From assembly GCA_964505155.1 (NCBI GenBank), contig CAZDGL010000003.1:5728-69727 (forward strand): a stretch of DNA of 64,000 bases, read 5' to 3'. This document shows, one piece after another, positions 4,253 through 48,340 of this stretch; within the stretch, counting starts at the first letter, position 1, and every line of letters starts with the position of its first letter. Position numbers and translations under genes: made by a program. This DNA comes from an uncultured Candidatus Saccharibacteria bacterium (GTDB taxonomy: Bacteria > Patescibacteriota > Minisyncoccia > Phycocordibacterales > UBA9973). Under the pieces are notes generated by a model. The model ran no database searches, was not told the DNA's origin, and worked only from the letters and a program-made list of their open reading frames with translations.

Positions 4253-4338
4253 AATATATGTATAAATACTATTGTATAACAAGATTTTTTAGAAGACTAT
4301 TTGTACAGTTATGTTGTATAATTATCTGTATAAAAAAT

Positions 4339-7300: not shown

Positions 7301-10300
7301 TCATTGCTAGTGGAGGAGCGCTAGATCTAAATGGTTATACTCTCGGAACAGCTGAAGCTATCACGTCTTTGGCAGGAACAGGTTTTGGTGCTTCTGGTAG
7401 TAGTAATATGGGAGCTATTATGAACAGCTCAGCTTCGCCTGCAAGCTATAGTGGAGCCCTGACACTTACTGCTGCGGCTCGTATCAATGCTGATGCTGGA
7501 GCACTTACTATTAGTGGGAATGCTTCTGGAAACTTTGCTCTAACCTTCGGAGGATTTTCTGATATCACTTATTCAGGAGTACGCTCTGGTACTAGTACTA
7601 TTGTAAAGGATGGAGTGAATACACTAACTCTTTCAAGTGGAAGCTCTTCTTATACAGGGGCCACTACTATAAGTGCTGGTACTGTAAAGGTTGGTGCTGC
7701 TTCAGTTGGTGGCACAAACTCTCCGCTTGGTACAACTGGTGGTGCTACTACTGTCGCGCTCGGTTCTCGACTTGATCTAAATGGATTTAACCTTGGAATA
7801 GCAGAACCTCTTACCCTAAACGGTGTCGGGTATGGACTCGGAGACTTTGCAAGTGGAGCTCTTGTAAATAGCTCAGGATCTACTGTAACTTATAGCGGAC
7901 TTATTACACTCGGGTCTGCTTCTACTATCAAAGCTGATTCGGGTACTGTTAACTTGACTGCTGCGGGTACAATATCAGGAGCAACGTTCGGACTAACTCT
8001 TGGCGGAGCAGGCACAGGAACACTCTCTAGTATTATAGGAACAACAACTGGTACAGTTACAAAAATAGATACAGGAACATGGACGATTTCAGGAGTTAGT
8101 ACTTATACAGGTGCTACTACTGTTAGTAGGGGCACTCTTAGATTGGGTGGTGGTGCAGGGGGCCCGACAAACTCAGTTTTAGGTACTACAGGTGGAGCTA
8201 CATCTGTTTTGAGTGGAGCGGTCTTGGATTTAAATGGTATTACTTTAGGTATAGCTGAGTCGCTTACAATAAACGGACGTGGAATAGACGATGGAGGTGC
8301 TCTTATCGGTGGCGCTGTGACTTGGCCTGGTACTGTTGCTCAAGCTACTGATTCTCGTATTACATCTTCTTCTGGAACACTTACTATTACTGGCGCCGTG
8401 AGTGGAGCCTTTGCTCTTTATGTTGGTGGTGCCGGCAATACTACATTTAGTACAGCTACTGGTACTGCGGGACTTAGTTTAACAAAACAAGGTGCCGGAA
8501 CTTTGACGCTAACTGGTACCAATACTCATACTGGGGCAACTCGAGTTGAATCCGGCACACTGGCTTATGCTGCATCTACGACCTTAGCGGCGACTGCGCT
8601 CACTGTTCTCGGTGGTACTTTTAACAGCGGTGCAAACGCTGACACTATCGGTGCTGTAACACTTATCGGTGGAACTATTACAAACTCTGCCGCTCTTACA
8701 GGTACTGCATATACCTTTGAAGGTGGAAATATTAGCGGTATTTTAGCTGGAGCAATTGCTGTAACAAAAAATACAAACAACACTGTCACTTTATCTGGAG
8801 TCAATACTATTAGTAGTACCATAACTATCAATGCAGGAACACTTACTTTCAGTGGTTCGGGGTCAGCTACTAGTGTTACCGGTGTTACAGTAAACCTCGG
8901 TGGTACATTGACTCTTGATAACTCTACAACAGCTGTGGCTGATAGACTCAACGGTACGGGTGGTACAAATGCCATTGTGCTGACAATGAACGGTGGCAAC
9001 TTCAACTTCATCGGTAATGGGGCAGCAGCATCTTCTGAAACACTTGGTCAGCTTGCTCTTGCATCGGGACACAACATTGTGACAGTTACTCCTGGTGCTG
9101 GTGGATCTACAACTCTTACTTTTGCAACTAACCCTGGATTTAACAGAACAGCTGGAGCAACAGTACTCTTCCGTGGTACTAATTTCGGCTCAAACTCTGG
9201 CGCCAATGTCTCTACTCTCGTATTTTCTACTACCCCTACACTAACTGGTGCAGGTGGAGCATCTGGTTCAGCGACAGTTAGTATTATCAAGGGTGCTTTT
9301 GGGGATAGCTCTCTTTCTGGAACAGGTTCTGATATGGTTACATACCAAGGTGGAACAGGACTTCGCTTACTTAACGGTGCGGGGTTTGCCAATGAATACT
9401 CTGGAGATTTTCAAACTGCCAATGCTAACGTTAAGCTCACTGCTGATCGCGCAGCAGTTGCTACCAACACCAACTCGCTTATACTAAACGGCTTTAGTGT
9501 TACTAACCCTGGAGGCGCAGTTACTATACCTATGGCTTCGGCATCACTCTCTGGTAACATTCTAATCAATTCAACAAATAATATCGCTGGCGCAAATACA
9601 ACTTTGGGTATTACCACTTTTGAATTACCTATTTTGGCTACAGCAAGTTCCACTATTTCCGCAACCATTGGTACTGCCACAACTGGCTCTCTAACATTAA
9701 GTGGCTCTGGTAACGTCACTCTCACTGCAACAAACGCTTACACCGGTACAACATTTATAAACAACGCTATACTGACCTCTGGTGCAAACAATGTGTTATC
9801 AAGTGGAGGTGTGACAGTAGTAGGTGGAACATACAACCTAAACGGCAATTCAGATACTGTCGGTAGTATATCTATAAATGCTGGAACTATTGCGACAGGT
9901 GCTGGTACTCTTACTGGCAACGGAACATTTACTACTGTTGCAAATGCTAACTTTGCTTCAATAATAACTGGTAACTTAGGTCTTGGCGCTAATGCTACAT
10001 TTACTATCAACGATGGACTTATGGATAATGACGCAGTTATCTCTGCAGTGATTAGTGGGGGATTTACTTTTGCAAAAGCGGGTAATGGAATTCTAGAGCT
10101 CTCTGGTAGTAACTCATATACTGGCACAACTACTATAAGCGGAGGAATACTCCGCCTGGGTGCTTCCGGTGGAGCTACAAACACTCCTCTTGGAACTACA
10201 GCAGGAGGAACCACCGTCTCTGGTGCAAGTTCGGCGCTTGATCTCAATGGTTACTCTCTCGGTACCTCTGAAGCACTGACCTTAAGTGGCGCTCTAGCAA

Positions 10301-13300
10301 CAGGAGCTCTACAAAATACTTCAAGTACTGCTGTAACCTATACAGGTCTTATCACACTCGGAGCAGCAAGTACTATCATTTCTAACTATGGAGATATTAG
10401 TATTACTAATAGCGGAACTATTTCAGGAGCAACATTTGGCCTAACTATTGGGGGAGCGGGCAATGGACTTCTCTTTAGTATTTTGGGTACTACAAGCGGC
10501 ACTCTCACAAAAAACGGTGTAGGAGTTTGGACTCTTTATGGTTCTAGCACTTTTACTGGCACAACTACTATAAGTGCTGGAACTCTCAAGCTTGGTGCTG
10601 CCGGTGGAGCTACAAACACTCCTCTTGGAACTACTGCAGGAGCAACTAGTATTACTAGTGGAGCTGTCCTGGATCTAAATGGTTTTACTCTTGGTACTGC
10701 TGAGCCAGTAACAATTAACGGAACAGGTATTGCAAGTATTGGAGCATTTATAAATAGTTCAAACAATACTATTTCTTATAGTGGAGCTATCACTCTAGGA
10801 GCTGCTTCTCGTGTTGCCAACTATGGTAGTGGGTTAATGACTGTTTCTGGAAACATCTCAGGTAACTTTGCCCTTACAGTTGTAACTGTAGGTAACTTTA
10901 CACAAGCAACAAATAGTGTTTGGTCCGGTTCAGGTTCTCTTGTAAAAGAAGGCTCAGGGACACTTATTTTATCAGGACAAAATAGCACGACTGGTGCAAT
11001 GACTGTTAGTACTGGTAAACTCCAGCTCGGTGCTTCCGGTGGAGCTACAAACACTCCTCTTGGAACAAATGCCGGAGGTGTGACTGTGTCTTCTGGAGCT
11101 GTTCTTGATCTAAGTACATTTTCTTTAGGTGGTGCATCAACATATGAGACACTAAACTTAAGTGGTACCGGTATAAACAATAACGGCGCTTTAACTTTTT
11201 CTGCTTCTACCAACAACAACTTTGGTGCTATGACAGTAGCAGCCAATACCCGTATAATAAACTCTGGTAGTGGCACTGTTACTTTCGGGGGGACAATAAC
11301 AGCTGCCAATGGAATAACTTTGGCTATTGGTGGTACTGGCCCAACGTCTATAACTGGAGTTTTTGGCGCGACAGCAACAACAGCTACTTTGACCAAGTGG
11401 GATGCTGGAACTCTGACTATTAGTGCTGCAAGTATTACTACTGGTTTGGTCCGTATCAACGGAGGAACACTGAGATATGGTGTTGCTGACGCACTCTCTA
11501 CTCCAGCTGTCACAGTAGCTGGCGGTACACTAAACTTGAACGGATTTAGTGAGACAAACATCGGTGCAGTAACTCTTATTGATGGGTCTATAGTAAACAC
11601 CGGTGCCGCCGCAACTCTGACTTCTACTGCGACATATACCCTTGAAAACGGAACTGTCAGTGCTGTTCTCGGTGGTGCCGTTGTAGCTGCTATTGTTAAA
11701 AATACTGCAGGAAGAGTTATCCTCTCAGGAGACAATACCTTCAATGGTACTTCTGCTACTATTGCTATAAATGCTGGATATTTAAATCTGCGTCACAACA
11801 ATGCTTTAGGAGCGGCTGCTAGTGCAAACACAACGACTATTTTAGGAGGGGCAACTCTTGAGCTCGAAAATAGTATCACTATACCAAGTGTCAAAGCTAT
11901 CACTGCAAATGGTACTGGTATGGAAAGAAATGGTGCAATAAGAAATGTTAGCGGAACAAACTCAATCGGTGCAAACATAACCCTAGGTACTACCAATGTC
12001 CGGATAAATTCAGATAGCGGAACTCTTACAATACCTACTGTTTCTGGGAATACTTTCAACTCAATCTTTGGCGGTGCAGGTAATACTACAGTCTCTGGAG
12101 CTATAACTACCACAAGCGGAACTCTTACAAAGGATGGTGCAGGTACACTTACTCTCTCTGGAAATAATACTTATACCGGTACTACAACTTTGATAAATGG
12201 TACTATTGTAGCCAACACTACAAATTCATTGGGAAATGAAAGCTCCACAAATACATTTATTTTTAGAGGCGGTACTTTGCAAGCAACAGGTACTATAACT
12301 TCTGCTGCAACTCGTGCTTTCACTCTAGCTTCAAATGCAACTATAGATACCAATGGCAACAGTGTTAGTATTGCCGGTACTGTAGGATCTATCGGCGGAC
12401 TTACAAAAACTGGTGCTGGTACCTTAACTATCACAGGTGTTACTACAATAGGAGGCAACCTTGCTATATCTTCTGGTACCTTTGTTGCACCAACGACTCT
12501 AACCCTGGGCGGAGACCTAACCAATAGCGGAACATTTACTCATAGTAATGGTACCGTTACAATAGCACCTACTAACTCTACACTAACCACAAATATTTTA
12601 GGTACTTCAGATACTGCGTTTTATAATCTAACCAACAATACTGCTGGCTCAACTATCCAGTTCAAAGCCGGCAACACTTATACTTTTGCCAATACACTAA
12701 TAATAAACGGTAGTGAAGGAAACCCTGTCTCAATAAACTCAGATAGCGCAGGTGTTCAGTGGTTGATGACTCTATCAGGTAGTGCTTCTCTTGCACACCT
12801 AAAAGTTAAAGATTCAGGTTGTAGTGGAGGCAACACCGTCTCAGCTAGTGGAAATGTTTATGACTATGGAAACAATGGTATATGTTGGTCATTTATATCT
12901 CCTGGATTTAAGCGAGGGGGAGATTCTATAGAGTCTTCTGCTGCTCCAAGTGGCCAAGTAGGTGGCGGAGGTAGTGGTGGTAGCGGTGGTGGCGGAGTTA
13001 GTTATGCAGTAGCCACTGCTGTAGTTTCTTCAAACGTTGTACAAAGTGTCACTATAGATTCTGGGGGTAGTGGTTATACCTTTGCGCCTACAGTACTGTT
13101 TTGTGGTGGTGGTGGCTCTGGTGCTTTAGGTACTGCAGTTTTGACAGGTGATGCTGTTTCAAGTGTGACAGTAGATAACGGTGGCTCTGGATACTCTAGT
13201 GTTCCTACAGTAGTGTTCAACAGTAACTGTCCTACTTCTGGTGGTAGCGGTGGCGGAGGTGGTGGGGGAGATATAGGATTTTTGTATCAAAGAAGAAGAT

Positions 13301-13380
13301 TCTTTGCTTTGTATAATCCTATAAATATAACTATTTTCAACTTCCTTTCTCAGGCATTTGTTCTCCAACCTAAGATTTAA
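4339..13380 (+). CDS. Giant (~3,010 aa) secreted adhesin-like protein built from autotransporter-associated beta-strand (PATR-type) repeats
   Basis: Signal peptide MNVAIKKILKPLAIIFAATFVFCFF..SYA. N-terminal motif WTGATSGSWSVGSNWSGGVAPVTGDDLVFPG and many repeats of the form G.GTLTLSG.NTYTGTTTISAGTL.LGA.GG.TNTPLGTT are characteristic of PATR/TIGR02601-type repeats. The ORF-track start at 4258 precedes the signal peptide, so ATG at 4339 is chosen. The C-terminus has poly-Gly runs. Confidence 0.8.
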   Translation: MNVAIKKILKPLAIIFAATFVFCFFSSEYSYAATRTWTGATSGSWSVGSNWSGGVAPVTGDDLVFPGGASNLSNTNDLTENTIINSITISGSGYTLSGNPIILGPGLAGLTDSASSGGNTVALDIRLDATRDIFVTNSGETLTISGRIAGVGGINKEGTGKLVLSGANTFGGILKINVGIVNAQNNTALGTIAAGTEVVGNAALELQGNIDISYEALALRGYGVSSTGALRNISGTNTYRGLITLSSAGGTEIASDSGTLTITGGMSGAFPLVIDGSGDVTYSTTPIATGSGTVTKNGSGTLTYNFPNTYSGLTTINAGTLLYGVDNAILTGAITVTGGTLDIATYSDMVGSVVVGTLDLASGTITGSTGVLSSAAWTVYNGTISAIIAGYAGTLTKSTTGTVVLTRANQFTGNTTISAGILEIQNSTSLGFIDGITTVSAGATLQINGSGLSIPEYITFSGTGHLYTGAIRNMGGDNTLTGLLTLGAAARIKSDASTTLTIDSKGLSATTLGLTIGGAGNTTFTSTAPIYGTTATLTKQDSGVLTMQAFNNFTGATNLNRGEIVLSSTGAMPNSTITVGSGGTLTLDNSSTTLLNRISDSAALTMNGGSFNFIGNATGTALENAGALTIASGHNTVTVTPGAGGPTTMNFASLSRTAGATVLFRGTNLGSNPAPNISTIMFTSAPAVLGGGGGAGTTTASIIKGAFGDSSLSGTGSDMVTYNLGNTNGLRLLNGAGFSGEYAFTLATNANVKLVADTVASTSSINSLILDGFSITNPGSAQTITLSSGSLAGNILMNSATSIAGANTTLGITTNHLDILTTASATISAVIGTAVAGSVAISGTGSATVSAANLYTGTTFINNATLFAGATNALSSGGVTVVGGTYDLGNFNDTVGAVILQNGTITSGSGTLSGTSYSLREGTVSAILGGGAATVTRIATSAAADSVVTMTRDNTYTGTTTITSGILKLGAAGGGTNTPLGTTGGGTLIASGGALDLNGYTLGTAEAITSLAGTGFGASGSSNMGAIMNSSASPASYSGALTLTAAARINADAGALTISGNASGNFALTFGGFSDITYSGVRSGTSTIVKDGVNTLTLSSGSSSYTGATTISAGTVKVGAASVGGTNSPLGTTGGATTVALGSRLDLNGFNLGIAEPLTLNGVGYGLGDFASGALVNSSGSTVTYSGLITLGSASTIKADSGTVNLTAAGTISGATFGLTLGGAGTGTLSSIIGTTTGTVTKIDTGTWTISGVSTYTGATTVSRGTLRLGGGAGGPTNSVLGTTGGATSVLSGAVLDLNGITLGIAESLTINGRGIDDGGALIGGAVTWPGTVAQATDSRITSSSGTLTITGAVSGAFALYVGGAGNTTFSTATGTAGLSLTKQGAGTLTLTGTNTHTGATRVESGTLAYAASTTLAATALTVLGGTFNSGANADTIGAVTLIGGTITNSAALTGTAYTFEGGNISGILAGAIAVTKNTNNTVTLSGVNTISSTITINAGTLTFSGSGSATSVTGVTVNLGGTLTLDNSTTAVADRLNGTGGTNAIVLTMNGGNFNFIGNGAAASSETLGQLALASGHNIVTVTPGAGGSTTLTFATNPGFNRTAGATVLFRGTNFGSNSGANVSTLVFSTTPTLTGAGGASGSATVSIIKGAFGDSSLSGTGSDMVTYQGGTGLRLLNGAGFANEYSGDFQTANANVKLTADRAAVATNTNSLILNGFSVTNPGGAVTIPMASASLSGNILINSTNNIAGANTTLGITTFELPILATASSTISATIGTATTGSLTLSGSGNVTLTATNAYTGTTFINNAILTSGANNVLSSGGVTVVGGTYNLNGNSDTVGSISINAGTIATGAGTLTGNGTFTTVANANFASIITGNLGLGANATFTINDGLMDNDAVISAVISGGFTFAKAGNGILELSGSNSYTGTTTISGGILRLGASGGATNTPLGTTAGGTTVSGASSALDLNGYSLGTSEALTLSGALATGALQNTSSTAVTYTGLITLGAASTIISNYGDISITNSGTISGATFGLTIGGAGNGLLFSILGTTSGTLTKNGVGVWTLYGSSTFTGTTTISAGTLKLGAAGGATNTPLGTTAGATSITSGAVLDLNGFTLGTAEPVTINGTGIASIGAFINSSNNTISYSGAITLGAASRVANYGSGLMTVSGNISGNFALTVVTVGNFTQATNSVWSGSGSLVKEGSGTLILSGQNSTTGAMTVSTGKLQLGASGGATNTPLGTNAGGVTVSSGAVLDLSTFSLGGASTYETLNLSGTGINNNGALTFSASTNNNFGAMTVAANTRIINSGSGTVTFGGTITAANGITLAIGGTGPTSITGVFGATATTATLTKWDAGTLTISAASITTGLVRINGGTLRYGVADALSTPAVTVAGGTLNLNGFSETNIGAVTLIDGSIVNTGAAATLTSTATYTLENGTVSAVLGGAVVAAIVKNTAGRVILSGDNTFNGTSATIAINAGYLNLRHNNALGAAASANTTTILGGATLELENSITIPSVKAITANGTGMERNGAIRNVSGTNSIGANITLGTTNVRINSDSGTLTIPTVSGNTFNSIFGGAGNTTVSGAITTTSGTLTKDGAGTLTLSGNNTYTGTTTLINGTIVANTTNSLGNESSTNTFIFRGGTLQATGTITSAATRAFTLASNATIDTNGNSVSIAGTVGSIGGLTKTGAGTLTITGVTTIGGNLAISSGTFVAPTTLTLGGDLTNSGTFTHSNGTVTIAPTNSTLTTNILGTSDTAFYNLTNNTAGSTIQFKAGNTYTFANTLIINGSEGNPVSINSDSAGVQWLMTLSGSASLAHLKVKDSGCSGGNTVSASGNVYDYGNNGICWSFISPGFKRGGDSIESSAAPSGQVGGGGSGGSGGGGVSYAVATAVVSSNVVQSVTIDSGGSGYTFAPTVLFCGGGGSGALGTAVLTGDAVSSVTVDNGGSGYSSVPTVVFNSNCPTSGGSGGGGGGGDIGFLYQRRRFFALYNPINITIFNFLSQAFVLQPKI
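6050..7400 (+). repeat. Intragenic large repeat, copy 1 (within the giant adhesin gene)
   Basis: Protein segment NGGSFNFIGNATGTALENAGALTIASGHNTVTVTPGAGG...RTAGATVLFRGTN...IIKGAFGDSSLSGTGSDMVTY... and the following ~450 aa recur about 2.85 kb downstream. DNA identity is high locally, e.g. ggtgcatttggtgacagctctctctctggaacaggttctgatatggt versus ggtgcttttggggatagctctctttctggaacaggttctgatatggt. Boundaries are approximate. Confidence 0.6.
8900..10300 (+). repeat. Intragenic large repeat, copy 2
   Basis: Second copy: NGGNFNFIGNGAAASSETLGQLALASGHNIVTVTPGAGG...RTAGATVLFRGTN...IIKGAFGDSSLSGTGSDMVTY.... The similarity continues through GILRLGASGGATNTPLGTTAGG and beyond. Boundaries are approximate. Confidence 0.6.
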
Positions 13381-13409: not shown

Positions 13410-13435
13410 CTTAGAGCTTAACATTTATATTGTTT

Positions 13436-13846
13436 ATGACTAAGAAAAGTTTTAAAAATATTTCTCTAGCGGTAATTATCCTGATTGTTCTATCTTTAGG
13501 TGGATTTTTTTACTATAAACTGCAAAAAATGAAAAAAAATAGTGCTGACATGGTCAAAAAAGAATCTCAGGAACTTTTAAGTAAGGTTTCAAGACTCTAC
13601 TTAGTATCTACAAAAGAAGAACCCACTATCGCTACTGTTTCTGACCCTGATAAACTAAAAGATCAAGCATTTTTCTCTGAATCAAAAAAAGGTGACAAGG
13701 TCCTTATCTTTACCCAAGCAGGAAAAGCTGTACTTTATCGTCCAGATATAGACAAAATAATAGCCATTGCTCCTTTTGATACTAGTAACAACTCAGGGAC
13801 AAACCCTACACCAGATAATAAAGCAACTACCAACTCTGGCAACTAG
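13436..13846 (+). CDS. Small single-pass membrane protein with Ser/Thr/Asn-rich C-terminal tail
   Basis: Hydrophobic N-terminal helix (ISLAVIILIVLSLGGFFYY). ATG at 13436; the ORF-track start at 13430 is a TTG. Confidence 0.45.
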   Translation: MTKKSFKNISLAVIILIVLSLGGFFYYKLQKMKKNSADMVKKESQELLSKVSRLYLVSTKEEPTIATVSDPDKLKDQAFFSESKKGDKVLIFTQAGKAVLYRPDIDKIIAIAPFDTSNNSGTNPTPDNKATTNSGN

Positions 13847-13873
13847 GTTTGATTATCGTGTTATTATATATCT

Positions 13874-14881
13874 ATGTTTAGAGTGCCTTATTTAGTTAAA
13901 AAAATATTTGGCGTTATTTTCCTTTTAGTTTTTTTTATAACTTCGTTTGCTTATTCTGCGGATATGACCAGTTCTAGTTTTATTATTCGTGATCCATTGG
14001 TTGGGACAGGTGGATCTTACGGCTCTTCTGCTAGTTTCCAAGCTTTTGGTTCAGGAGATATGACTACTATCGGTAGGTCTACCTCCGCTAGTTTTGAAGG
14101 TAGATATGGATTTTTATGGTTTCCTTATGTAACTCAGGGTACGTTTACAGCTACTCCAAATGGCTCTCAGGCAGATCTTGCTTGGGGCGCTTCCACAGCT
14201 GGACTTGGTTGGAGTGTCTCTGGTTATAAAACAGGGATTAAACCCTCTGGTGGATCGTACTCTTATACTACACATGGTCTTATAACTAGTTATTCTTATA
14301 CAGGGCTTACTCCGGGGGGATACTGTTTTGTACTACAAACTTTAGATGCTTTCAGCAATGTCATAGCAACTTCAAGCGAAGAGTGTATAACCATACAAAC
14401 AGTTCTAACTTTCTCTGTTTCGTCTAGCTCTATAGGATTTGGGACTTTGTCTGCTTCCGGTCCAAGATATGCAACCACAAGTGGCGGTAGTGGGTCAAAC
14501 TCAGTCGCTCATACAATGTCAGCTTCAAGCAATGCAGGTAGTGGATATACAATAACTTATTTTGGACCAACATTAACTAGTGGTTCAAATACTATAACTC
14601 CTGCAACTATTACAAATGATGCTGATGGTACTCCAGGGTCAAGTCAATTTGCCCTTTCTCTTTCTTCTTCGGGAAGTGCTAGTATCACTTCGGCTTACAA
14701 CCAATCAAGTGGATCAGGAAATTGGAAGTTCGTAGCTAGTACAGTGGAACCGATAGCAAGTACGAGCGGAGTGACCTCTTCGGAGACTTTTAGCAACAGA
14801 TATTTGTCAAATATTTCCTCACTAACTCCAGCTGGTAGCTATGCCACAGATATCACCTACGTAATAAGTGCCAATTTCTAG
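13874..14881 (+). CDS. Secreted Ser/Thr/Gly-rich surface protein, paralog A, with conserved C-terminal module (WxL-like?)
   Basis: Sec signal peptide. C-terminal ~150 aa (TITPATITNDADGTPGSSQFALSLS...NWKFVASTV...AGSYATDITYVISANF) are clearly homologous to the C-terminus of the next gene. Confidence 0.6.
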   Translation: MFRVPYLVKKIFGVIFLLVFFITSFAYSADMTSSSFIIRDPLVGTGGSYGSSASFQAFGSGDMTTIGRSTSASFEGRYGFLWFPYVTQGTFTATPNGSQADLAWGASTAGLGWSVSGYKTGIKPSGGSYSYTTHGLITSYSYTGLTPGGYCFVLQTLDAFSNVIATSSEECITIQTVLTFSVSSSSIGFGTLSASGPRYATTSGGSGSNSVAHTMSASSNAGSGYTITYFGPTLTSGSNTITPATITNDADGTPGSSQFALSLSSSGSASITSAYNQSSGSGNWKFVASTVEPIASTSGVTSSETFSNRYLSNISSLTPAGSYATDITYVISANF

Positions 14882-14996
14882 AAAACTGTGGATAACTATA
14901 CGTTTTTGATTGATTAGATCTTTCAATATTGTTATACTATAAGTAAGTACTAGGTAAGTGCTTAAATTATTATAAATAAAATTAAATTTTTAAATT

Positions 14997-16085
14997 ATGT
15001 TAAAGAAAATTATTAGTTCTATCTCTATCTTGGCTTTTGTATTTGGTACATTGGCATACAACCCTTTTACAGCAGTCGCAGCTCAGTTTACTGGAGTCAA
15101 AGACACTCTTTCTACTGTTACAGTTAATACAACAGCAACTCACGTCATAACAGCAACTCTTGTTGGCGGAGACACTTTTGCTGCTGCTGAAACCCTAACC
15201 TACGATTTCGTAGATGCTGATTTTACCCTTAACGCTATTGGTTCTTGGCAGACAGCAGACTTTTCTTTCAACGATGGTACAGCTCGAACAATCACCGCAG
15301 TCTCATCTTCAAGTGGTGTTGATCCTACATGTACAGCAGGTGTTAACAACGTAGCTGTTACTATAAACACATCAACAAACAACTTTAAAGTTACTGCTTG
15401 TAGTACTTATACAGCTTCTTCAGCTAACGCTACAGTTACCTTTACTATCAATGGAACAACAGCTTCTGGTACAGGAACAATGACCAACAAATCTTCAGAT
15501 GTAGACTCTTCTACATTCTCTATAACAGAATCAAACGGAGATACTGCAAGTGGCGCAGTTGTTGCTGAAACTAACGGTACAGTTAACATCACTGCTACTG
15601 TTTCTCCTACACTTACCTTTGCAAATGATGACGCTTCTGTTGGATTTGGAACACTTACTTCTGGTGCAGCAAGATGGGCTAACGGTGCTGCGACTGGATC
15701 TGCTTCTACAACAACAGCTCATACTATGACGATAGGAACAAATGCTCCTACTGGATACACACTTACCTATAACGGTCCAACTCTAACTTCTGGAGGAAAT
15801 ACAATAGCACCTGCAACTATCTCTGGTGATGCTGATGGTACCCCTGGATCAAGCCAATTTGCTCTTGGTGTGACTGTGACAGGTACAGGAACAGCTTCTG
15901 CTGGTTATCAAACTGCTTCAGACAACTATAACTTTGTAGCTTCGACTGTTTCTCAGGTAGCAGCTGCAACAGCTCCTGTTTCTTCTGATACAGTGGCAGT
16001 AAGATACTTAGCAAACGTATCAGCTTCTCAAGCAGCTGGTAGTTATGCTACAAACCTAGACTGGGTTGTTACTGGTAACTTCTAA
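14997..16085 (+). CDS. Secreted Ser/Thr/Gly-rich surface protein, paralog B, same C-terminal module
   Basis: Signal peptide. C-terminus TIAPATISGDADGTPGSSQFALGVT...NYNFVASTV...AGSYATNLDWVVTGNF is parallel to paralog A. The terminal Y-x-T-x-L-x-W-V-V pattern resembles the second WxL motif of Gram-positive WxL domains. Confidence 0.6.
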   Translation: MLKKIISSISILAFVFGTLAYNPFTAVAAQFTGVKDTLSTVTVNTTATHVITATLVGGDTFAAAETLTYDFVDADFTLNAIGSWQTADFSFNDGTARTITAVSSSSGVDPTCTAGVNNVAVTINTSTNNFKVTACSTYTASSANATVTFTINGTTASGTGTMTNKSSDVDSSTFSITESNGDTASGAVVAETNGTVNITATVSPTLTFANDDASVGFGTLTSGAARWANGAATGSASTTTAHTMTIGTNAPTGYTLTYNGPTLTSGGNTIAPATISGDADGTPGSSQFALGVTVTGTGTASAGYQTASDNYNFVASTVSQVAAATAPVSSDTVAVRYLANVSASQAAGSYATNLDWVVTGNF

Positions 16086-16115
16086 AAAGATTTATTAACT
16101 TAAAAAAGAGAGTTT

Positions 16116-17129
16116 ATGGTAAGAAAAATACTTTTAACGATTGGAGTATCGCTTTTAGCAACATGCTTTTTGGCTACTAAAAGTGCTTACGCCCTTACCA
16201 TAACTCCTATACGTTATGAGATATCAGGAAATCCTGGGGAAACTGTTACTCAAAAAATGGGTCTCGTAAACGAGACCAACAAAACTCAAACATTCTTTGC
16301 TTCGTTTGAAAACTTTGAAGCTCAAGGTGATACAGGAAGTCCTAGTTTTGTGGAAGCAAAAGATGGCCTAGGTACATGGATGACAACAGAGCAGGCCTCT
16401 ATCACACTTGCCCCTGGTGCTCAAAAAGAAATGTCTTTTAGCATTAAGATACCAAAAGATGCAGAACCAGGAGGGTATTTTGCAGCTATTTTTTGGGGAA
16501 CATCTCCAGGAGGTAATGCTCCAGGACAAGTTTCTATAGGAACCAAAACTGGCCTTCTCATACTTTTGACCGTTAACGGAGATATTAGAGAACAAGCTGG
16601 ACTTGTAGATTTTGAGCTTCATAACAACAAACATTTTTATAAAATGTTGCCTGTTGGGTTTCAATATAGATTTTCAAACCAAGGAAATGATAGAGTAAAG
16701 CCAAAAGGCGATATTGTTATCCGTAGTATATTTGGATGGGTTGCAAAAAGAGTCAATGCAAATCCTTATGATGGTAACGTTCTTCCTGGTACTACTAGAA
16801 AATTCTCACCAGAGTGGAGCAAAAGAGACTCTGTAGAAGTCAGAGATCAAGAAATTTCTCGAAACGAGTCATATTCTTTCAAGAAAGCTGTGGGTGATCA
16901 ATGGCACAATTTTGCTTTTGGGATTTTTAGAGCAAAGGTAGTAGCTAGTTTTGGTGTTGCAAACCAGGTAGCAAAAAGTCAGGCTGTTTATTTTGTAGTT
17001 TTCCCTTGGGAGTTGATTTTGGTAATTATAGTTTTAGCTATTCCAGTCTATTTTATACTTAGAGCTTTGCTCAAAAGGTATAACAGAGCTGTTATTAGAA
17101 GAGCACAGAAGCAGATGGGTATGCGCTAA
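16116..17129 (+). CDS. CscA-like cell-surface protein (DUF916-like N-domain, DUF3324-like domain, C-terminal TM anchor with basic tail)
   Basis: Signal peptide, beta-rich region (LTITPIRYEISGNPGETVTQKMGLVNETNKTQTF...APGAQKEMSFSIKIPKDAEPGGYFAAIFWG). C-terminal TM (ILVIIVLAIPVYFIL) is followed by RALLKRYNRAVIRRAQKQ. Size (337 aa) and architecture match CscA-type proteins of WxL loci. Family assignment is inferred, not searched. Confidence 0.5.
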   Translation: MVRKILLTIGVSLLATCFLATKSAYALTITPIRYEISGNPGETVTQKMGLVNETNKTQTFFASFENFEAQGDTGSPSFVEAKDGLGTWMTTEQASITLAPGAQKEMSFSIKIPKDAEPGGYFAAIFWGTSPGGNAPGQVSIGTKTGLLILLTVNGDIREQAGLVDFELHNNKHFYKMLPVGFQYRFSNQGNDRVKPKGDIVIRSIFGWVAKRVNANPYDGNVLPGTTRKFSPEWSKRDSVEVRDQEISRNESYSFKKAVGDQWHNFAFGIFRAKVVASFGVANQVAKSQAVYFVVFPWELILVIIVLAIPVYFILRALLKRYNRAVIRRAQKQMGMR

Positions 17130-18025
17130 TGATTTATGATTTTGTTATGCCTTTCAAAACTAAGCACATTATCGTATTAAGTTCAGTATTTGTTTTACTA
17201 ACTTCTTTTTTTCTATATAAAAATTTAAATGCTCAAACCTTAACAGAATCAGAAACAGTTTCTATAGGAGCGATAGTGGGTAGTATTCCTAGTATAGATA
17301 CAGGTCCAGGAGGTGGAACGTATCAAAGCGGCGTACGTTTTTCAGGACTTGCTTATCCAAAGGCCTTGGTCACAGTTCAAAAAAGAGATACTACTTTTGT
17401 GACAGTTGTAGCAGATGAAACAGGAGCTTTTTCTATTCTTGTTCCAGAAACTTCTTGGCAGTTGTTTACCTTATTTGCTGTTGATACAAAAGGTCGCAAA
17501 TCAACACTCTTAAATTTCCCAACTATTTTGTACAGTGGTTATATAACAGATATATCAGGTATAAGATTTGCCCCTACTTTGGTCACTGATAAAATATCTG
17601 TAAAAAGAGGTGACTTTATAACGTTTTCTGGGTCTGCTCTACCAAATAAAGAAGTAGAAGTTTCTTTTGAGGGGGAAGAATCAAAAACTTTTTATCTTAC
17701 TTCTGATGAGCTTGGGTTTTTTAGCGCTACAGTTCCTCTTGATTTAAAAAATGGAGAATACGTAGTTAGAGCTTTTTATTCTAAAGACTCAAGAACCAGT
17801 AAGGCCCTTAGAATAACTATAGGAAACTCTACAATACTACGAAACGAAGCTACAAATAACATACCAGGGGATTGTAACTTTGATCAAAATATCACACTTG
17901 TTGATTTTTCAGTTTTGGCCTTTTGGTACGGCAAGCAAAACCCGCCCAAGTGTGTTGACGCAAACTCTGATAGAATAGTAAATCTAATAGACTTCAGTAT
18001 AGTTGCTTTTTATTGGAATGGTTAA
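17129..18025 (+). CDS. Secreted protein with two Ig-like/beta-sandwich regions and a C-terminal type I dockerin module
   Basis: C-terminus holds two canonical dockerin Ca-binding repeats: GDCNFDQNITLVDFSVLAFWYG and DANSDRIVNLIDFSIVAFYWNG (D1-N3-D5-V8-N9-D12 followed by a hydrophobic helix). Confidence 0.65.
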   Translation: MIYDFVMPFKTKHIIVLSSVFVLLTSFFLYKNLNAQTLTESETVSIGAIVGSIPSIDTGPGGGTYQSGVRFSGLAYPKALVTVQKRDTTFVTVVADETGAFSILVPETSWQLFTLFAVDTKGRKSTLLNFPTILYSGYITDISGIRFAPTLVTDKISVKRGDFITFSGSALPNKEVEVSFEGEESKTFYLTSDELGFFSATVPLDLKNGEYVVRAFYSKDSRTSKALRITIGNSTILRNEATNNIPGDCNFDQNITLVDFSVLAFWYGKQNPPKCVDANSDRIVNLIDFSIVAFYWNG

Positions 18026-18028
18026 AAT

Positions 18029-18934
18029 ATGAATCAGAAAAAATACAAAAAAATAAATTTAATTGTTATTCTAGTTTTAGGTATTTTTCTCTTACCTTTT
18101 AAAGTCGCCACAGCTTCTTTACTCGAGTTTTCTGCTTTGGAAAAAGTCTCTGTCAATGAAAAATTTTATTTAGATATTTTGGTTGATCCAGAATCTCAAA
18201 GTATAAACTCAGTCGGGGCATCTGTTCTTTTTGATCCAGAACTATTCACATATTTAGGATTTAGTTCGAAGCAAAGCAGTATCCCTGTTTGGGTAGAAGA
18301 GCCAAAACAAGAAAAACTAGGAACTATAAAATTTTCAGGAGTTATCCCAGGAGGTATAGAAAGAATCTATGATCCACTAAACACAGGACAAAGATCAATC
18401 CCTATCGTGAGATTGTTTTTTGCAGGTAAACAAGAAGGTTATGGAACCTTTACTTTTTCTGATGCTGTAGTTTTGAAAAATGACGGGCTAGGAACTACGA
18501 CTAAACTATCAGTAAAGAGCAAGTCTGTTTCAGTTACAAAAGGAAATTCTCTAAATGATGCTCAAAAAGATTTGGTTAACCCAGAGCCTTTTTCTATAAA
18601 GATAATAGAGCGATCTATCTTTGGGAGGTCTCCAAGGCTTGCCGTTTTTTCTTCAAATGATGAGGGGGGCGGTATAGAGCGTTATGAAGTCTCTATTTCA
18701 GGGGGTCCTTTTAAAATCTCTTCCAGCCCCGTTCCTTTGCCGTATAAATTGTTCTCATATGAGTTTATTGTTAGAGCTTATGATTATTCGGGTAATTTTA
18801 GAGAGCAAAAGATTTTGGTCTCCGGAGAGAAGATTTATGGCGCTGGTGGCATCATAGTTATTTTTATACTGATTCTTGGCTTTATTCGTTATAAATTTTA
18901 TAATAAGAAGAGGATAAACAATGAAAAGATTTAG
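18029..18934 (+). CDS. Membrane-anchored cohesin-like domain protein 1
   Basis: Signal peptide. The N-domain (FYLDILVDPESQSINSVGASVLFDPELFTYLGF...GTFTFSDAVVLKNDGLGT) fits the cohesin beta-sandwich pattern (F.v.V......i......yDP..l..........F.F......dG). C-terminal TM helix GGIIVIFILILGFI. Confidence 0.5.
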   Translation: MNQKKYKKINLIVILVLGIFLLPFKVATASLLEFSALEKVSVNEKFYLDILVDPESQSINSVGASVLFDPELFTYLGFSSKQSSIPVWVEEPKQEKLGTIKFSGVIPGGIERIYDPLNTGQRSIPIVRLFFAGKQEGYGTFTFSDAVVLKNDGLGTTTKLSVKSKSVSVTKGNSLNDAQKDLVNPEPFSIKIIERSIFGRSPRLAVFSSNDEGGGIERYEVSISGGPFKISSSPVPLPYKLFSYEFIVRAYDYSGNFREQKILVSGEKIYGAGGIIVIFILILGFIRYKFYNKKRINNEKI

Positions 18935-20003
18935 TTTATTTTTATTTCTGAGCTTAGCTTTGGCTTCATGCAAAGCCTCTTTTGCTAGTGAAAATTTTAT
19001 AATAAGTGTACCCAATAGAGATATAAGAGTTGGTGAAAGTTTTCCTGTCACTGTTTTTGTTAGTAGTAACTCTCAAGCGATGAATGCTGTTTCTGGTACT
19101 TTGCAAGCCTCAGGAGGGCTAAGTGTTGGCGGTGTCTCTAAACAAAGCAGTATTGTTGATTTTTGGACTATAGAACCACAAATCTTTGGTAGTCAGATTA
19201 AGTTTGAAGGAGTTGTCTTAAACCCAGGTTTTCAAGGTCAAAGCGGAAAACTCTTTACTATCAACTTTTTAGCCCGCAAAGAAGGTAATGCCTTACTTTC
19301 TTTTTCAGACGGAGCTATCCTCGCAAATGATGGTTTAGGGAGCAATATTATAGACTCTCTTTCATCAAAGAGTGTAAAGATAGTCGCAGGTGCTCCTGTT
19401 ATTGTTGATCAGATACCTAGAGCTCCTATTGCCGTGGATAAACCTTTAGTCCCAACAAAACTATCAGCTCTTCCTGTTATCACAGAATACTCTCAGGTTG
19501 TTGATTCTTCTGGCCGGGCATTTATCAAAGGTAGAGGTGAGCCCAATGCTATAACAAAACTATCTTTCAAAGATACTTCAGCTAAAAGTTTGGGTGAACA
19601 GTTTATCATTGCATTACAAACCAAAAAACAAAAACCAACAGAAGCTCTTGTAAAAAACGATAATCAAGGTGTATTTCAGTACATATCATCCAACAACCTA
19701 GTTGCTGGAGCTTATAACGTTACACCATTTTTGGTTGAAGAAGATAATCAAACCCAGAAACCTGGTTTCGGAGTTCAGCTTTTAGTCAATAACAGTAAAA
19801 TGGTACGTTGGTTGGTTGTGCTTATAAATGTCCTAGCTCTGCTTATTCCTATTGTTTGTTTGGGTGTTATTGTTTACTTTATCCCTTGGTACTCAAGACT
19901 TAGAATGAAAATCCTTAATCATAAGATAAAACTTGAAGATGAGAAACTAACTCTTACAGAAAAACAACTCAAAAAAGAAGAATCTTCAACCGAGCAAACA
20001 TAG
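18921..20003 (+). CDS. Membrane-anchored cohesin-like domain protein 2 (paralog of 18029 N-domain)
   Basis: Signal peptide. The N-domain (FPVTVFVSSNSQAMNAVSGTLQASGGLSVGG...ALLSFSDGAILANDGLGS) is paralogous to the previous gene. C-terminal TM (WLVVLINVLALLIPIVCLGVIVYFI) plus short cytoplasmic coiled coil. Overlaps the previous gene by 14 nt. Confidence 0.5.
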   Translation: MKRFSLFLFLSLALASCKASFASENFIISVPNRDIRVGESFPVTVFVSSNSQAMNAVSGTLQASGGLSVGGVSKQSSIVDFWTIEPQIFGSQIKFEGVVLNPGFQGQSGKLFTINFLARKEGNALLSFSDGAILANDGLGSNIIDSLSSKSVKIVAGAPVIVDQIPRAPIAVDKPLVPTKLSALPVITEYSQVVDSSGRAFIKGRGEPNAITKLSFKDTSAKSLGEQFIIALQTKKQKPTEALVKNDNQGVFQYISSNNLVAGAYNVTPFLVEEDNQTQKPGFGVQLLVNNSKMVRWLVVLINVLALLIPIVCLGVIVYFIPWYSRLRMKILNHKIKLEDEKLTLTEKQLKKEESSTEQT

Positions 20004-20039
20004 TAGAGTTTTGTTGTGATACAATATTTATATAAATAT

Positions 20040-21119
20040 ATGCTTCGATCTTTTTTGCTAACCCTTTTTATCTTTCTCTCTTTCACTTCTTTGGTAAGTG
20101 CCAATGTTCTTACTCCTGATCAGCGCTCTTGGCTGACCAGTCACAAAAACACTTTACTCGTTAGGCCAGAGCGCAATTATCCTCCTTTTTCTTTTTTATC
20201 TTCTTCTACTAGCGCTAGACCCAAAGGCCTTGCTGTTGACTACTTAGACCTTGTCGCAAAAAAGGTTGGAGCAGTTGCTACTTTCTTAGAACCAAGATCT
20301 CGAAGTGCTATTTTATCTGATATAAAATCAGGCAAAGAAGGTATTGTACTTGCTATATCAGAATCCGCTGATAGGTCTGACTATATGTACTTTTCTGAAC
20401 CCTTTATATCCTTACCAGCGGTTATTGTGACAAGAAAGGATTTTAAACATTCAAAAGATCTAACTTTGGCTGATTTTGAAGCTAAACAAGTAGCTGTAAC
20501 AGGTGGCTATGAAGCTTTTGATTATATAAAAGATAATTATCCAAAAATAATTTTAGAGTCTGTCTCTGACGACGAAGTCGCTCTCCAAAAGCTTCTCCTC
20601 GGAGAGGTAGATGCTGCCGTTATGGATCTAGCATCACTGTCATACTATACCAGCAAGGATGTGCTCTCTTATGTATCTGTTGGTGGGCAAACTGGTTTTG
20701 AGTACAACCTCTCTTTTGCAGTCCCAAAAACAATGCCAGAAATGGTTACTATTTTAAATGCGGGACTTAAAGAAATAACCCCAACAGAAAAAATCATAAT
20801 CTCTGATCGATGGATAACTTTTGAAGAAAATAGAGAAGATAAAACTCAAAAAGTTTTTGGTATTTTACAAAGTCCTTTTTGGATTTCTGTCAGTATCTTG
20901 GCTATAGTTATCATCATCGTTTTATTGACACTGATAATTGTTCACTCTAGAAGGCATCATAGATATCACCTTGCTAGCCTCAAGAGAACTCAAGAGCTTG
21001 CTGAGCTCAAAAATGAACTTTCGCGTTTGGAAGGTGCTAGTGATACCTTGGAACAAAATTTAGAAGAAATAGACTCGCTCAAAAGAGCTGTAGAGGAGAA
21101 AATAGAGCATATAAACTAA
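20040..21119 (+). CDS. Tethered Venus-flytrap (SBP_bac_3-like solute-binding) domain protein with C-terminal TM and coiled coil, paralog 1
   Basis: Signal peptide. Motifs LLVRPERNYPPFSF and GEVDAAVMDLASLSYYT are typical of family-3 periplasmic binding domains; followed by a TM helix and Leu-heptad tail. The ORF-track start at 20016 is GTG; ATG at 20040 begins the signal peptide. Confidence 0.6.
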   Translation: MLRSFLLTLFIFLSFTSLVSANVLTPDQRSWLTSHKNTLLVRPERNYPPFSFLSSSTSARPKGLAVDYLDLVAKKVGAVATFLEPRSRSAILSDIKSGKEGIVLAISESADRSDYMYFSEPFISLPAVIVTRKDFKHSKDLTLADFEAKQVAVTGGYEAFDYIKDNYPKIILESVSDDEVALQKLLLGEVDAAVMDLASLSYYTSKDVLSYVSVGGQTGFEYNLSFAVPKTMPEMVTILNAGLKEITPTEKIIISDRWITFEENREDKTQKVFGILQSPFWISVSILAIVIIIVLLTLIIVHSRRHHRYHLASLKRTQELAELKNELSRLEGASDTLEQNLEEIDSLKRAVEEKIEHIN

Positions 21120-21165
21120 GTGTTGATTTTATAGCTCTAAACACGCTACAATACCTTATATCAAC

Positions 21166-22266
21166 ATGTCTAAACTCAGCAATTTCCTTCTAGCCACATT
21201 TTTAGCTATTTTATGTTTTGGGTTCTATTTTGACCAAGTAGCTTTTGCTGAAAATTCTATTTTAACTCAAGAGCAAAGTTCTTGGCTTAGTAAAAGAAAT
21301 AATACTATTTTGATCCGACCAGAGCGTAACTATCCTCCTTTTGTTTTTTCTGTACAAAACGGGCTTTCAAATGTCATTCAAGGTTTGGGCGTTGATTATT
21401 TGGAATTAATCACAAAAAAGATAGGAGCCAAGGTTCAATACTTCGAACCAACACAGCTTTCAAATATTTTGTCTTCTTTTAAAGAAGGTAAAGAAGGTGT
21501 AGCAATTGCCCTTACTAAAACAGCTGAAAGAGAAGAGTATTTGTACTTTACAAAGTCTTTTATAAGCATTCCCGCAGTTATCGTAGCCAGAAAAGATAGC
21601 AACTTATCGCAGGGCGATACTTCTTTAGCTGATTTGTCAGGCAAGGTTGTTGCTGTTGGCAAGGCTCATGCTGTTGAATCATATATCAAAAGTTCTTATC
21701 CTAATATAGTTTTAGATTCTTTACCAGATGACGAGGTTTCTCTCCAAAAGCTCCTCCTTGGAGAGGTAGATGCTGCCGTCATGGATTTGGCATCACTGTC
21801 ATACTATACCAATAATCAGGCGCTTTCATATGTGTCTGTAGTTGGTCAAGCTAATTTCAACTACAATCTATCTTTTGCTATTTCAAAGAAAAATAAAGAA
21901 CTTCAAAATATTTTTGATACTGCTCTTGGTACAGTAACTCCACAAGAAGCATCAGCACTGAGAGATAAATGGATTACACTAAAAGATGTCTCAATCGTAA
22001 AGTCAGAACCTACTAGTTTATTTAAAAATCCGATATTTGTAGTAGTCGTATCTATACTAATCATATTTTTTATTTTATCTACCTCTGTTTTCTTATCTTT
22101 TTTAAAGAAAATACAAACTCTTTTGGCTCAAAATTTAAAATTTAATAAAAATAAAAATGAGATAGAAAGTAAATTAGAAAGCTTAGAAAATGCAAAAGCT
22201 ATGATTAAAAAAGAACTTGAACATATTGACGAGCTAGAAAATAATCTTAAAGATACTTTGGACTAA
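21166..22266 (+). CDS. Tethered Venus-flytrap (SBP_bac_3-like) domain protein, paralog 2
   Basis: Same architecture and shared motifs (ILIRPERNYPPFVF; GEVDAAVMDLASLSYYT) as the preceding gene; tandem paralogs. Confidence 0.6.
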   Translation: MSKLSNFLLATFLAILCFGFYFDQVAFAENSILTQEQSSWLSKRNNTILIRPERNYPPFVFSVQNGLSNVIQGLGVDYLELITKKIGAKVQYFEPTQLSNILSSFKEGKEGVAIALTKTAEREEYLYFTKSFISIPAVIVARKDSNLSQGDTSLADLSGKVVAVGKAHAVESYIKSSYPNIVLDSLPDDEVSLQKLLLGEVDAAVMDLASLSYYTNNQALSYVSVVGQANFNYNLSFAISKKNKELQNIFDTALGTVTPQEASALRDKWITLKDVSIVKSEPTSLFKNPIFVVVVSILIIFFILSTSVFLSFLKKIQTLLAQNLKFNKNKNEIESKLESLENAKAMIKKELEHIDELENNLKDTLD

Positions 22267-38801: not shown

Positions 38802-38931
38802 AAACCCGATCTCTCGGGCTTTTTACACTAGCTGTTTATATGCCAGGTAGCTAGTTCTGCTGGGGTCTTTATACACCGACAATTACTTTTTTTAATACTA
38901 CTAATTTCTATATAAAAATCAAATTTAAGAT

Positions 38932-45719: not shown

Positions 45720-45726
45720 ATTTTTT

Positions 45727-48260: not shown

Positions 48261-48340
48261 AGAACCATTTACTCTTAGTGACGACAAAACGCCACAAATA
48301 TTACATTATTATAGCCTAAAATACCGATTTTGGGCATATC

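Follow-up and report, generated by a model that had tools for sequence, protein, structure and literature searches.

Organization of the locus

The subject of our analysis is a cluster of genes for secreted proteins in a stretch of 64,000 nucleotides from contig CAZDGL010000003.1 of assembly GCA_964505155.1, an uncultured bacterium placed in the Minisyncoccia; we refer to this whole stretch as the window and use its coordinates throughout. An earlier note on this DNA had described positions 13436-17129 as a three-gene WxL/CscA-like cell-surface locus, made up of two paralogous Ser/Thr-rich secreted proteins and an anchor protein of DUF916/DUF3324 architecture. Our results suggest that the genes probably encode a Parcubacteria-type variant of the donor-strand pilus named Pam in bacteria of the candidate phyla radiation (CPR), that is, a thin, adhesive, sortase-independent and usher-less filament built on a monoderm envelope, and that the most suitable class for the locus is that of a Pam variant specific to its lineage and not that of a WxL cluster.

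The three open reading frames (ORFs) lie on the forward strand where they had been placed, at 13874-14881 (335 amino acids, aa), 14997-16085 (362 aa) and 16116-17129 (337 aa), but the range contains four genes and not three, because position 13436 is an ATG two codons inside a further gene, 13430..13846 (+). This gene encodes a protein of 138 aa with an N-terminal transmembrane or signal-anchor segment (residues 11-29) and a small conserved C-terminal domain, in which the conservation profile shows the well-conserved motif PTIATVSDP...KKGDKVLIYT. The 138-aa protein has no Pfam or NCBIfam family match; it opens the cassette in many loci, and an ortholog 5' of the pilin genes was found as 32 ORFs across the CPR loci that we collected.

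These loci, 84 in number, were gathered by exact-protein look-ups and one metagenome scan, and wherever the contig reaches they show the same order: the 138-aa gene, one to three pilin genes, the 337-aa gene, and then the genes of the 298-, 301- and 360-aa proteins, which come after the 337-aa gene in every case where the contig reaches far enough in that direction. The order persists even where the 337-aa protein is 42-48% identical, and in about one quarter of the related loci a gene for a solute-binding protein closes the cassette. The unit is larger than the earlier note stated, and the three downstream genes likely belong to the same machine as the pilin genes and not to a separate island. 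The cassette genes of the window stand close together, with overlaps of 1 nucleotide between the 337- and 298-aa genes and of 14 nucleotides between the 301- and 360-aa genes; the sole sizeable gap is an AT-rich stretch of 115 bp at 14882-14996 (+), just before the shaft pilin gene. An extended -10 promoter-like site lies in this gap at 14910-14938; the promoter and terminator scan as a whole stayed at chance level.

The cassette is set among housekeeping genes (EF-Ts, S2, ProRS, MreBC, TGT, UvrABC). The scan of all but a few of the window ORFs revealed neither an ATP-synthase Pfam family nor a sortase. The cassette proteins lack LPXTG motifs, the cassette contains no usher or PapD Pfam family, and the window proteins had no names in public collections.

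The two paralogous subunits

The 335-aa and 362-aa proteins have in common a C-terminal module of 164 aa with 49% identity and 71% positives (BLASTP, E=1e-44), ending in ...AGSYATDITYVISANF and ...AGSYATNLDWVVTGNF respectively. Both begin with a hydrophobic signal sequence, both are rich in serine and threonine (S+T 32% and 31%), and both have exactly one pair of cysteines, located in the N-terminal half; the earlier description of Ser/Thr-rich secreted paralogs with a common C-terminal module, and the pairwise relationship it proposed, were thus confirmed. When a profile hidden Markov model (HMM) of the module was run against the six-frame translation of the window it found these two genes only, at 201 and 184 bits, the latter for the 335-aa protein, and the next best score was 3.9. 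The C-terminal module is not disordered. As modeled by AlphaFold2, the 362-aa protein forms two beta domains, with a mean predicted local distance difference test (pLDDT) score of 93 and values of 90-98 across the C-terminal domain.

Both paralogs match the NCBIfam family NF058581 (CPR_Pam_pilin_C, Pam pilus system pilin subunit) above its curated cut-off of 55 bits, the 335-aa protein with 58.8 bits over model positions 18-148 and the 362-aa protein with 60 bits over positions 10-148 of 148, while other members of the family score 62-85 bits. A sub-clade of pilins with a divergent C-terminus (...HADYTDALTFIATGTF; L069:1927-2712, L069:3626-4789 and L099:1764-2582) is not recognized by NF058581, so the model under-detects the family. 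One of these loci, L069, of the Nomurabacteria type, also has a gene for an IS200-type Y1 transposase (L069:2761-3429, minus strand) between the PamT-like and the shaft pilin genes, as do L070, L071 and L084; the rest of the L069 cassette is intact.

The 362-aa protein (14997..16085, +) is our candidate for the major, or shaft, pilin. It consists of a signal peptide (residues 1-29), an N-terminal beta-sandwich (30-191) containing Cys112-Cys135, and a putative C-terminal acceptor domain (206-362, nt 15612-16082, +), and it has 324 homologs. A Foldseek search of the whole model against the PDB returned generic two-domain adhesins of immunoglobulin-like (Ig-like) fold only, with TM-scores below 0.3, and no useful match to PDB sequences came from phmmer and hmmsearch runs of the 335-, 362- and 337-aa proteins and of two family profiles.

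The 335-aa protein (13874..14881, +) is the putative tip subunit. Behind a signal peptide at about residues 1-29 it has a PamT-like N-terminal motif (about 31-85), an inserted domain with Cys151-Cys171, and the pilin C-terminal domain (173-335, nt 14390-14878, +). The NCBIfam model for PamT, NF058579, matches it with 43.5 bits (E=2e-11), residues 11-80 aligning to model positions 7-77, and a 242-aa ortholog in locus L079 aligns to the same model end to end (7-241 of 241, 57 bits).

The inter-domain linker

Between the two domains of the 362-aa protein lies a segment, TNGTVNITATVSPT (residues 192-205, 15570..15611, +), that we consider a putative donor strand. In the monomer model it has no assigned strand and is unpaired, and it carries the alternating hydrophobic residues V196-I198-A200-V202 (pattern V-x-I-x-A-x-V). 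It is also the most conserved region of the 362-aa family, with a mean conservation of 0.72 as compared with 0.59 for the N-terminal and 0.60 for the C-terminal domain; V196, A200, V202 and P204 are nearly invariant.

With an HMM of the linker the 362-aa protein reaches a score of 16.6, and the 335-aa protein one of -1.5. We extended this survey to 140 proteins bearing the C-terminal domain from the 84 loci, counting a linker as present at a score of at least 5. Among mid-length proteins without a PamT-like N-terminal motif (n=88) the linker was present in 84%, and it was present in 0% of the mid-length proteins that have the motif (n=10) and in 0% of the long proteins of 517-1911 aa (n=11). 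There are loci with one to three shaft-type genes and one gene without the linker. This division is what a donor-strand fiber needs: a shaft subunit requires both donor and acceptor and a tip subunit the acceptor only.

Comparison of the subunits with WxL proteins

The proposal that the two paralogs have WxL domains was not supported. PF13731 gave no match at E<=1 to either protein, neither contains the Trp-x-Leu (W.L) motif, and the positions aligned to the WxL motifs read GYTLTY / LDWVV and GYTITY / ITYVI. On these results membership of the WxL family is not supported, and we did not accept a marginal excess over block-shuffled decoys and a colinear set of motifs as evidence for it. The tests comprised Pfam, hhalign in default, greedy and global modes, HMMER in both directions, and decoys. 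With domains trimmed, hhalign aligned the pilin C-terminal domain with WxL over the last strand only (probability 2.8%, P=0.016); the greedy mode yielded a colinear alignment of 133 columns whose score was still insignificant. Three motif blocks fall in register in the two families (LTF..FG; TNA..GY.LTY against RG..GW.LSV; AGSY.T.LTY against Y.T.LTW.L), and the hhalign score of 21.4 lies narrowly above all 25 of 25 block-shuffled decoys (16.2±1.7), whereas the HMMER score of 6.9 bits falls below shuffled decoys that reached 12.3. The pilin domain and the WxL domain may at most be very distantly related.

The order of the genes does agree with the earlier proposal. The 335-, 362- and 337-aa genes are consecutive, subunits first and then a WxLIP-like gene within four genes, and two subunits followed by a membrane-anchored protein are in line with how WxL clusters have been defined in print (PMC10599100).

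The membrane-anchored 337-aa protein

The 337-aa protein (16116..17129, +) is a candidate WxLIP-like or PapD-like chaperone. Its layout is as had been described from the letters: a signal peptide (residues 1-26), a DUF916-like domain (about 27-168), a second beta-rich, Ig-like domain (180-295), a C-terminal transmembrane helix (starting at residue 298, nt 17007, +) and a cytoplasmic tail rich in Arg and Lys. The AlphaFold2 model, built from an alignment of 50 sequences, has a pLDDT of 90 and shows a pair of beta-sandwich domains and, at the C-terminus, a long helix. Foldseek placed the newly released WxLIP structures of Enterococcus faecium at the top of the PDB matches to this model (9i1y/9i25, E=6e-12, TM-scores 0.42/0.51-0.53, 295 aligned columns); entry 9i25, "WxLIP bound to long WxL", is a WxLIP-WxL heterocomplex, and its WxL chain was not among the top 50 matches to the model of the 362-aa protein. 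The comparison of structures favors the earlier assignment for the anchor protein and not for the subunits. Behind the WxLIPs and RbmA came a long series of chaperones of chaperone-usher systems (CfaA, CsuC, Caf1M, SafB, FimC, DraB and EcpB, E=1e-10 to 2e-7), with target-normalized TM-scores up to 0.63. We also tried and rejected a reading of the 337-aa protein as an RbmA-like anchor, which had an E-value similar to that of WxLIP and TM-scores of 0.23-0.25 (root-mean-square deviation about 15 Å), as against 0.4-0.6 for the WxLIP and chaperone matches.

At the level of Pfam, PF06030 (DUF916/WxLIP_PGBD) reached 21 bits, under its cut-off of 27.3, and PF11797 (DUF3324) did not match the protein at all. 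To have a reference set we retrieved 68 Firmicutes loci by the published WxLIP signature NQIDKxxxYFDLK and extracted 55 WxLIPs and 69 small WxL proteins, on which the Pfam models behaved as controls (PF06030 135 bits, PF11797 121-173 bits, PF13731 72-200 bits). Against these WxLIPs, hhalign gave a probability of 67.6% (P=5e-5) with domain 1 of our first 50-sequence profile of the 337-aa family, 92.5% (P=5e-7) with 72 sequences from the fetched loci, and 98.2% (P=5e-14, 214 columns) with 133 diverse representatives. By domain, the relationship of domain 1 to DUF916 has P=4.5e-10 and that of domain 2 to DUF3324 only P=0.0044; all negative controls had P>=0.02, and the real pair scored 109 as compared with 27 for a reversed decoy and 20.8±4.5 for block-shuffled ones. 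HMMER agreed, with up to 39 bits for the CPR profile on WxLIPs and 27.8 bits for the WxLIP profile on CPR proteins, and the greedy alignment is colinear from the signal peptide through the transmembrane helix and basic tail. The N-terminal signature NQIDKxxxYFDLK itself is absent from the 337-aa protein, where the segment aligned to it reads ...TPIRYEISGNPGE and, relative to WxLIP, has a deletion in place of NQIDK. The 337-aa protein is a remote homolog of the WxLIPs (DUF916/DUF3324) and not a member by Pfam criteria; since the fold, hhalign, decoy and HMMER comparisons agree, the DUF916/DUF3324 (CscA) architecture given for it is correct as remote homology, although it does not pass the Pfam cut-offs.

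Domain 1 contains a long beta-hairpin (residues 119-153, 16470..16574, +) in which strands 119-129 and 144-153 flank a low-confidence tip (130-143, mean pLDDT 58). In chaperones of chaperone-usher systems the strand-donating element is the F1-G1 region. By likeness to that region and to the hairpin of the WxLIPs, the hairpin of the 337-aa protein is a candidate strand-donating, G1-like element. For the WxLIP hairpin, insertion into WxL is predicted by AlphaFold2 (PMC10599100).

The family of the 337-aa protein is very large. When sequences are clustered at 50% identity, 10,121 representatives belong to it at E<=1e-3, and 1,107 still do so at E<=1e-30; the first count excludes genuine WxLIPs because the narrow profile that we used scores them at only about 15 bits. 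In a database clustered at 90% we found 565 homologs of the 337-aa protein and 324 of the 362-aa protein, and all that are named come from Patescibacteria, namely Nomurabacteria (within the Parcubacteria group), "Pacebacteria" or Minisyncoccia, in agreement with the CPR-type host that had been considered for this DNA.

Flanking genes and other features of the window

The gene that follows, 17129..18025 (+), encodes a secreted protein of 298 aa that is our candidate for a base or terminator adaptor. It has a conserved N-terminal strand (V44-x-I-x-A-x-V50), a Gly-rich spacer, one or more Ig domains of the Big_6 type and a two-repeat dockerin-like C-terminus (246-298), the dockerin being conserved in the family. 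The window copy scores 34.5 bits with Big_6 and 18.8 bits with Dockerin_1, and one family member reaches 31.7 bits with Dockerin_1 (cut-off 22.9). The N-terminal strand of the family (V-x-I-S-A-x-V) resembles the pilin linker reciprocally and position-specifically, if weakly (E about 0.03-0.04), and the linker HMM gives a median score of 2.1 on the family at about position 39.

Two candidate membrane anchors come next. The 301-aa protein (18029..18934, +) is cohesin-like and has a signal peptide, a beta-rich ectodomain and a C-terminal transmembrane helix (268-286), and the 360-aa protein (18921..20003, +) has a signal peptide, a cohesin-like N-terminal domain, a transmembrane helix (299-317) and a coiled-coil tail. 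Their families are paralogous (hhalign 99.9%, P=2e-34). Cohesin signals are weak: in the 360-aa family, Pfam Cohesin aligns to one member with E=0.043 (positions 3-105 of the 139 in the model), and for the window copy a TMEM132 cohesin-like domain comes up at E=0.1. Further downstream, 20016..22266 (+) encodes two tandem solute-binding proteins of the SBP_bac_3 family (PF00497, 56.7 and 66.6 bits), each of which has a transmembrane helix at its C-terminus and a coiled-coil tail.

Directly upstream of the cassette lies the gene of a giant surface protein of 3040 aa with beta-helical PATR repeats (4258..13380, +; PATR PF12951, 58 bits), which is possibly an associated adhesin. A minority of the loci (12 ORFs) have a homolog of it upstream, and the homologous giants of L120, L124 and L138 end in the pilin C-terminal domain. 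Several of the long proteins with this domain are beta-helical, PATR-type adhesins that resemble the 3040-aa protein in kind; in L116 (134-3409) and L133 (3068-8803) a PATR-type repeat protein ends in the pilin linker and C-terminal domain. The 3040-aa protein itself has no pilin C-terminal domain (HMM score -0.9). It has in common with the giants of other CPR loci a C-terminal module, NSDS.G.QW...VKDSGC...CW, which in those loci is fused straight to the pilin linker and C-terminal domain; in the window protein the C-terminus is made up of Gly-rich repeats and a hydrophobic tail.

Elsewhere in the window we observed three further groups of genes. The interval between uvrA and uvrC, at 36457-39792, encodes a phytoene/squalene synthase, an amine-oxidase-type desaturase and a UbiA prenyltransferase. 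Such an isoprenoid or carotenoid-like cluster is unexpected for a reduced CPR genome. At 43878-47052 (+) a gene for a type IV coupling protein of the VirD4/TrwB type is followed by one for a Lamin-tail-domain protein, and at 47030-48287 (-) a gene for an extracytoplasmic function (ECF)-type sigma factor stands beside a DUF5667 gene, possibly its anti-sigma partner.

Relationship to known systems

The Pam pilus was described in Candidatus Mycosynbacter amalyticus (Saccharimonadia), where cryo-electron microscopy of filaments identified the pilins PamA and PamB, each with an N-terminal sandwich, a linker that serves as donor strand and a truncated Ig-like C-terminal domain that accepts the linker of the neighboring subunit (bioRxiv 10.64898/2026.03.03.709456). 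In these pilins the linker and C-terminal domain are the most conserved parts and the cysteines are paired; PamE is a further pilin, and the operon also encodes the linker-less tip PamT, the RbmA-like transmembrane anchor PamR, and PamC and PamD, PapD/FimC-like chaperones with a C-terminal transmembrane helix (bioRxiv 10.64898/2026.03.03.709456). The same preprint is the source of NF058579 and NF058581; it stresses Saccharimonadia and Microgenomatia and does not mention Paceibacteria/Nomurabacteria or WxL/DUF916 (bioRxiv 10.64898/2026.03.03.709456). The window system resembles this pilus in its pilin C-terminal domain above the NF058581 cut-off, in a two-domain pilin with a conserved linker, in a linker-less PamT-like subunit, in the paired cysteines of the N-terminal domain, in a PapD-like protein of two domains whose transmembrane helix is C-terminal, in the Sec signals on all components, in the lack of an usher and, among the scanned ORFs, of a sortase, and in having a CPR host. 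It differs in that the host lineage is Parcubacteria/Nomurabacteria-like instead of Saccharimonadia or Microgenomatia, that PamE was not recognized in the window, and that the cassette has a Big_6-dockerin protein and two cohesin-like transmembrane proteins downstream and the 138-aa transmembrane protein upstream.

With the WxL/Csc clusters of Bacilli the window shares a remote WxLIP homolog of the same length (337 aa) and domain order, at least two secreted proteins in short and long versions that have a common C-terminal beta domain and are encoded upstream, and a helper protein predicted to complement the subunit with a strand. In contrast to those clusters, the window subunits have no detectable WxL domain or Trp-x-Leu, the helper has no NQIDKxxxYFDLK, the proteins miss the Pfam cut-offs, there is no LPXTG partner, and the host is a CPR bacterium and not a Firmicute. 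The likeness to chaperone-usher systems lies in the two-Ig-domain chaperone fold of the 337-aa protein, in the pairing of an acceptor domain with a donor strand, and in a tip subunit without the latter; unlike them, the window system has no usher or outer membrane, its chaperone-like protein is membrane-anchored, its putative donor strand is an inter-domain linker and not an N-terminal extension, and its proteins have no sequence match to PapD-family Pfam models or PDB chains. We found no literature that ties WxL to assembly of the chaperone-usher type.

Proposed mechanism and alternative explanations

All products carry Sec-type signal sequences. At the level of domain families, the 362-aa protein, with its beta-sandwich, conserved unpaired linker and Pam-pilin C-terminal domain, has the makeup of a polymerizing shaft pilin. 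Its C-terminal domain would be an incomplete Ig-like fold whose groove is filled by the linker of the next subunit. The 335-aa protein is predicted from its motifs and from the linker statistics to sit at the distal tip, and it could sit only there, because it has an acceptor domain and a PamT-like N-terminus and lacks the donor linker; in other genomes this place would be taken by adhesins of 0.5-1.9 kaa (thousand aa) ending in the same domain. The 337-aa protein, homologous to WxLIPs, of a chaperone-like fold and held in the membrane by its C-terminal helix, would act as the chaperone, the hairpin strand of its domain 1 presumably capping the acceptor groove of newly exported subunits until strand exchange. 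More speculatively, the 298-aa Big_6-dockerin protein might supply the final N-terminal strand and dock to the cohesin-like 301- and 360-aa proteins, so mooring the filament.

Several points weigh against a Pam-type fiber. The margins over the NF058581 cut-off are small (58.8 and 60 as against 55), the PamT score of 43.5 bits is far below the equivalog cut-off of 240 in a protein that also has an inserted domain, and the NCBIfam Pam models fail to recognize the 337-aa family or the 298-, 301- and 360-aa families. The only pilin in the Foldseek results for the 362-aa model is CfaE, at rank 49. The structural models are of monomers, and the open groove and the strand insertion are putative, with indirect support from the presence of the linker in 84% of shaft-type and 0% of tip-type members. 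The 298-aa protein has a strand of weak likeness to a donor, with a linker score of -1.4 in the window copy. The operon content differs from that of M. amalyticus in having one chaperone-like gene and not two, no identified RbmA-like PamR and no ATP-synthase neighborhood. No filaments have been observed so far in this lineage.

The points in favor of a WxL/Csc-type complex have to be set beside these. Here the two paralogs would be divergent WxL proteins held non-covalently on peptidoglycan, stabilized by the 337-aa protein as WxLIP/CscA, and would not build a filament. Homology of the 337-aa protein to WxLIP, the published gene order, the existence of short and long proteins with one common C-terminal domain (as in small and large WxL proteins), and the three colinear motif blocks with an hhalign score above all 25 decoys are what such a complex would lead one to expect. 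We nevertheless consider it improbable: PF13731 and Trp-x-Leu are missing, the hhalign probability is 2.8% and HMMER falls below shuffled decoys, the WxL chain of 9i25 stays outside the Foldseek top 50, the cassette has no LPXTG protein and the scanned ORFs no sortase, and NCBIfam assigns the domain to the Pam pilin family. Nor does a complex that does not polymerize explain a donor-type linker kept only in the shaft-type members. The same linker, conserved, unpaired and of alternating hydrophobicity, would have no role if the subunits were displayed one to one on the 337-aa protein by strand complementation, as membrane-tethered adhesins that present their variable N-terminal domains and undergo neither exchange nor polymerization. 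This arrangement, which has slightly less to commend it than the previous one, gains from the permanent membrane anchor of the chaperone-like protein, from the solution of 9i25 as a WxLIP-WxL heterocomplex and from the existence of long adhesins fused to the C-terminal domain; it loses in that homologous Pam pilins are seen as filaments by cryo-electron microscopy and that one to three shaft-type genes with one linker-less gene fit a tip-and-shaft layout. Finally, a dockerin in the 298-aa family, above the Pfam cut-off in one member, and the weak cohesin signal of the 360-aa family could be read as a cellulosome-like cohesin-dockerin scaffold, with the Ig-like proteins as unrelated cargo or scaffold modules and their pilin likeness convergent. 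Since dockerins and cohesins are missing from both pilin paralogs and from the 337-aa protein, and the NCBIfam Pam matches and the WxLIP/chaperone homology would go unexplained, we regard a scaffold as very unlikely. A Pam-type donor-strand pilus thus is the reading we prefer, and its role is likely the contact of an episymbiotic ultrasmall bacterium with its host or prey.

Implications

Pam pili were first described in 2026 and in one cultivated Saccharimonadia parasite (bioRxiv 10.64898/2026.03.03.709456). A related cassette, differently composed and highly conserved in order, is now found in Parcubacteria-type CPR bacteria, and its helper protein belongs to a very large family of about 10,000 representatives at 50%-identity clustering. 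To our knowledge the mechanism of the WxL/Csc clusters has been unclear since 2006. Because the 337-aa helper is homologous to WxLIP it joins two surface systems that were formerly treated apart, and it provides a testable bridge from CPR pili to the WxL/Csc clusters of lactobacilli, enterococci and Listeria. As a tentative idea, and one that we hold to be rather doubtful at present, the Pam pilus and the WxL/Csc clusters might be two branches of one ancient monoderm system, composed of an anchored WxLIP-type chaperone and subunits that share an incomplete C-terminal beta-sandwich. Donor-strand complementation or exchange would in that case be how the WxL clusters operate, and the Parcubacteria would have a fiber with interchangeable tip adhesins, either PamT-like or giant and beta-helical, moored by dockerin and cohesin instead of an RbmA-like anchor. 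The presence or absence of the linker offers a simple rule for predicting shaft and tip subunits, and candidate host-recognition adhesins therefore become predictable in uncultivated episymbionts.

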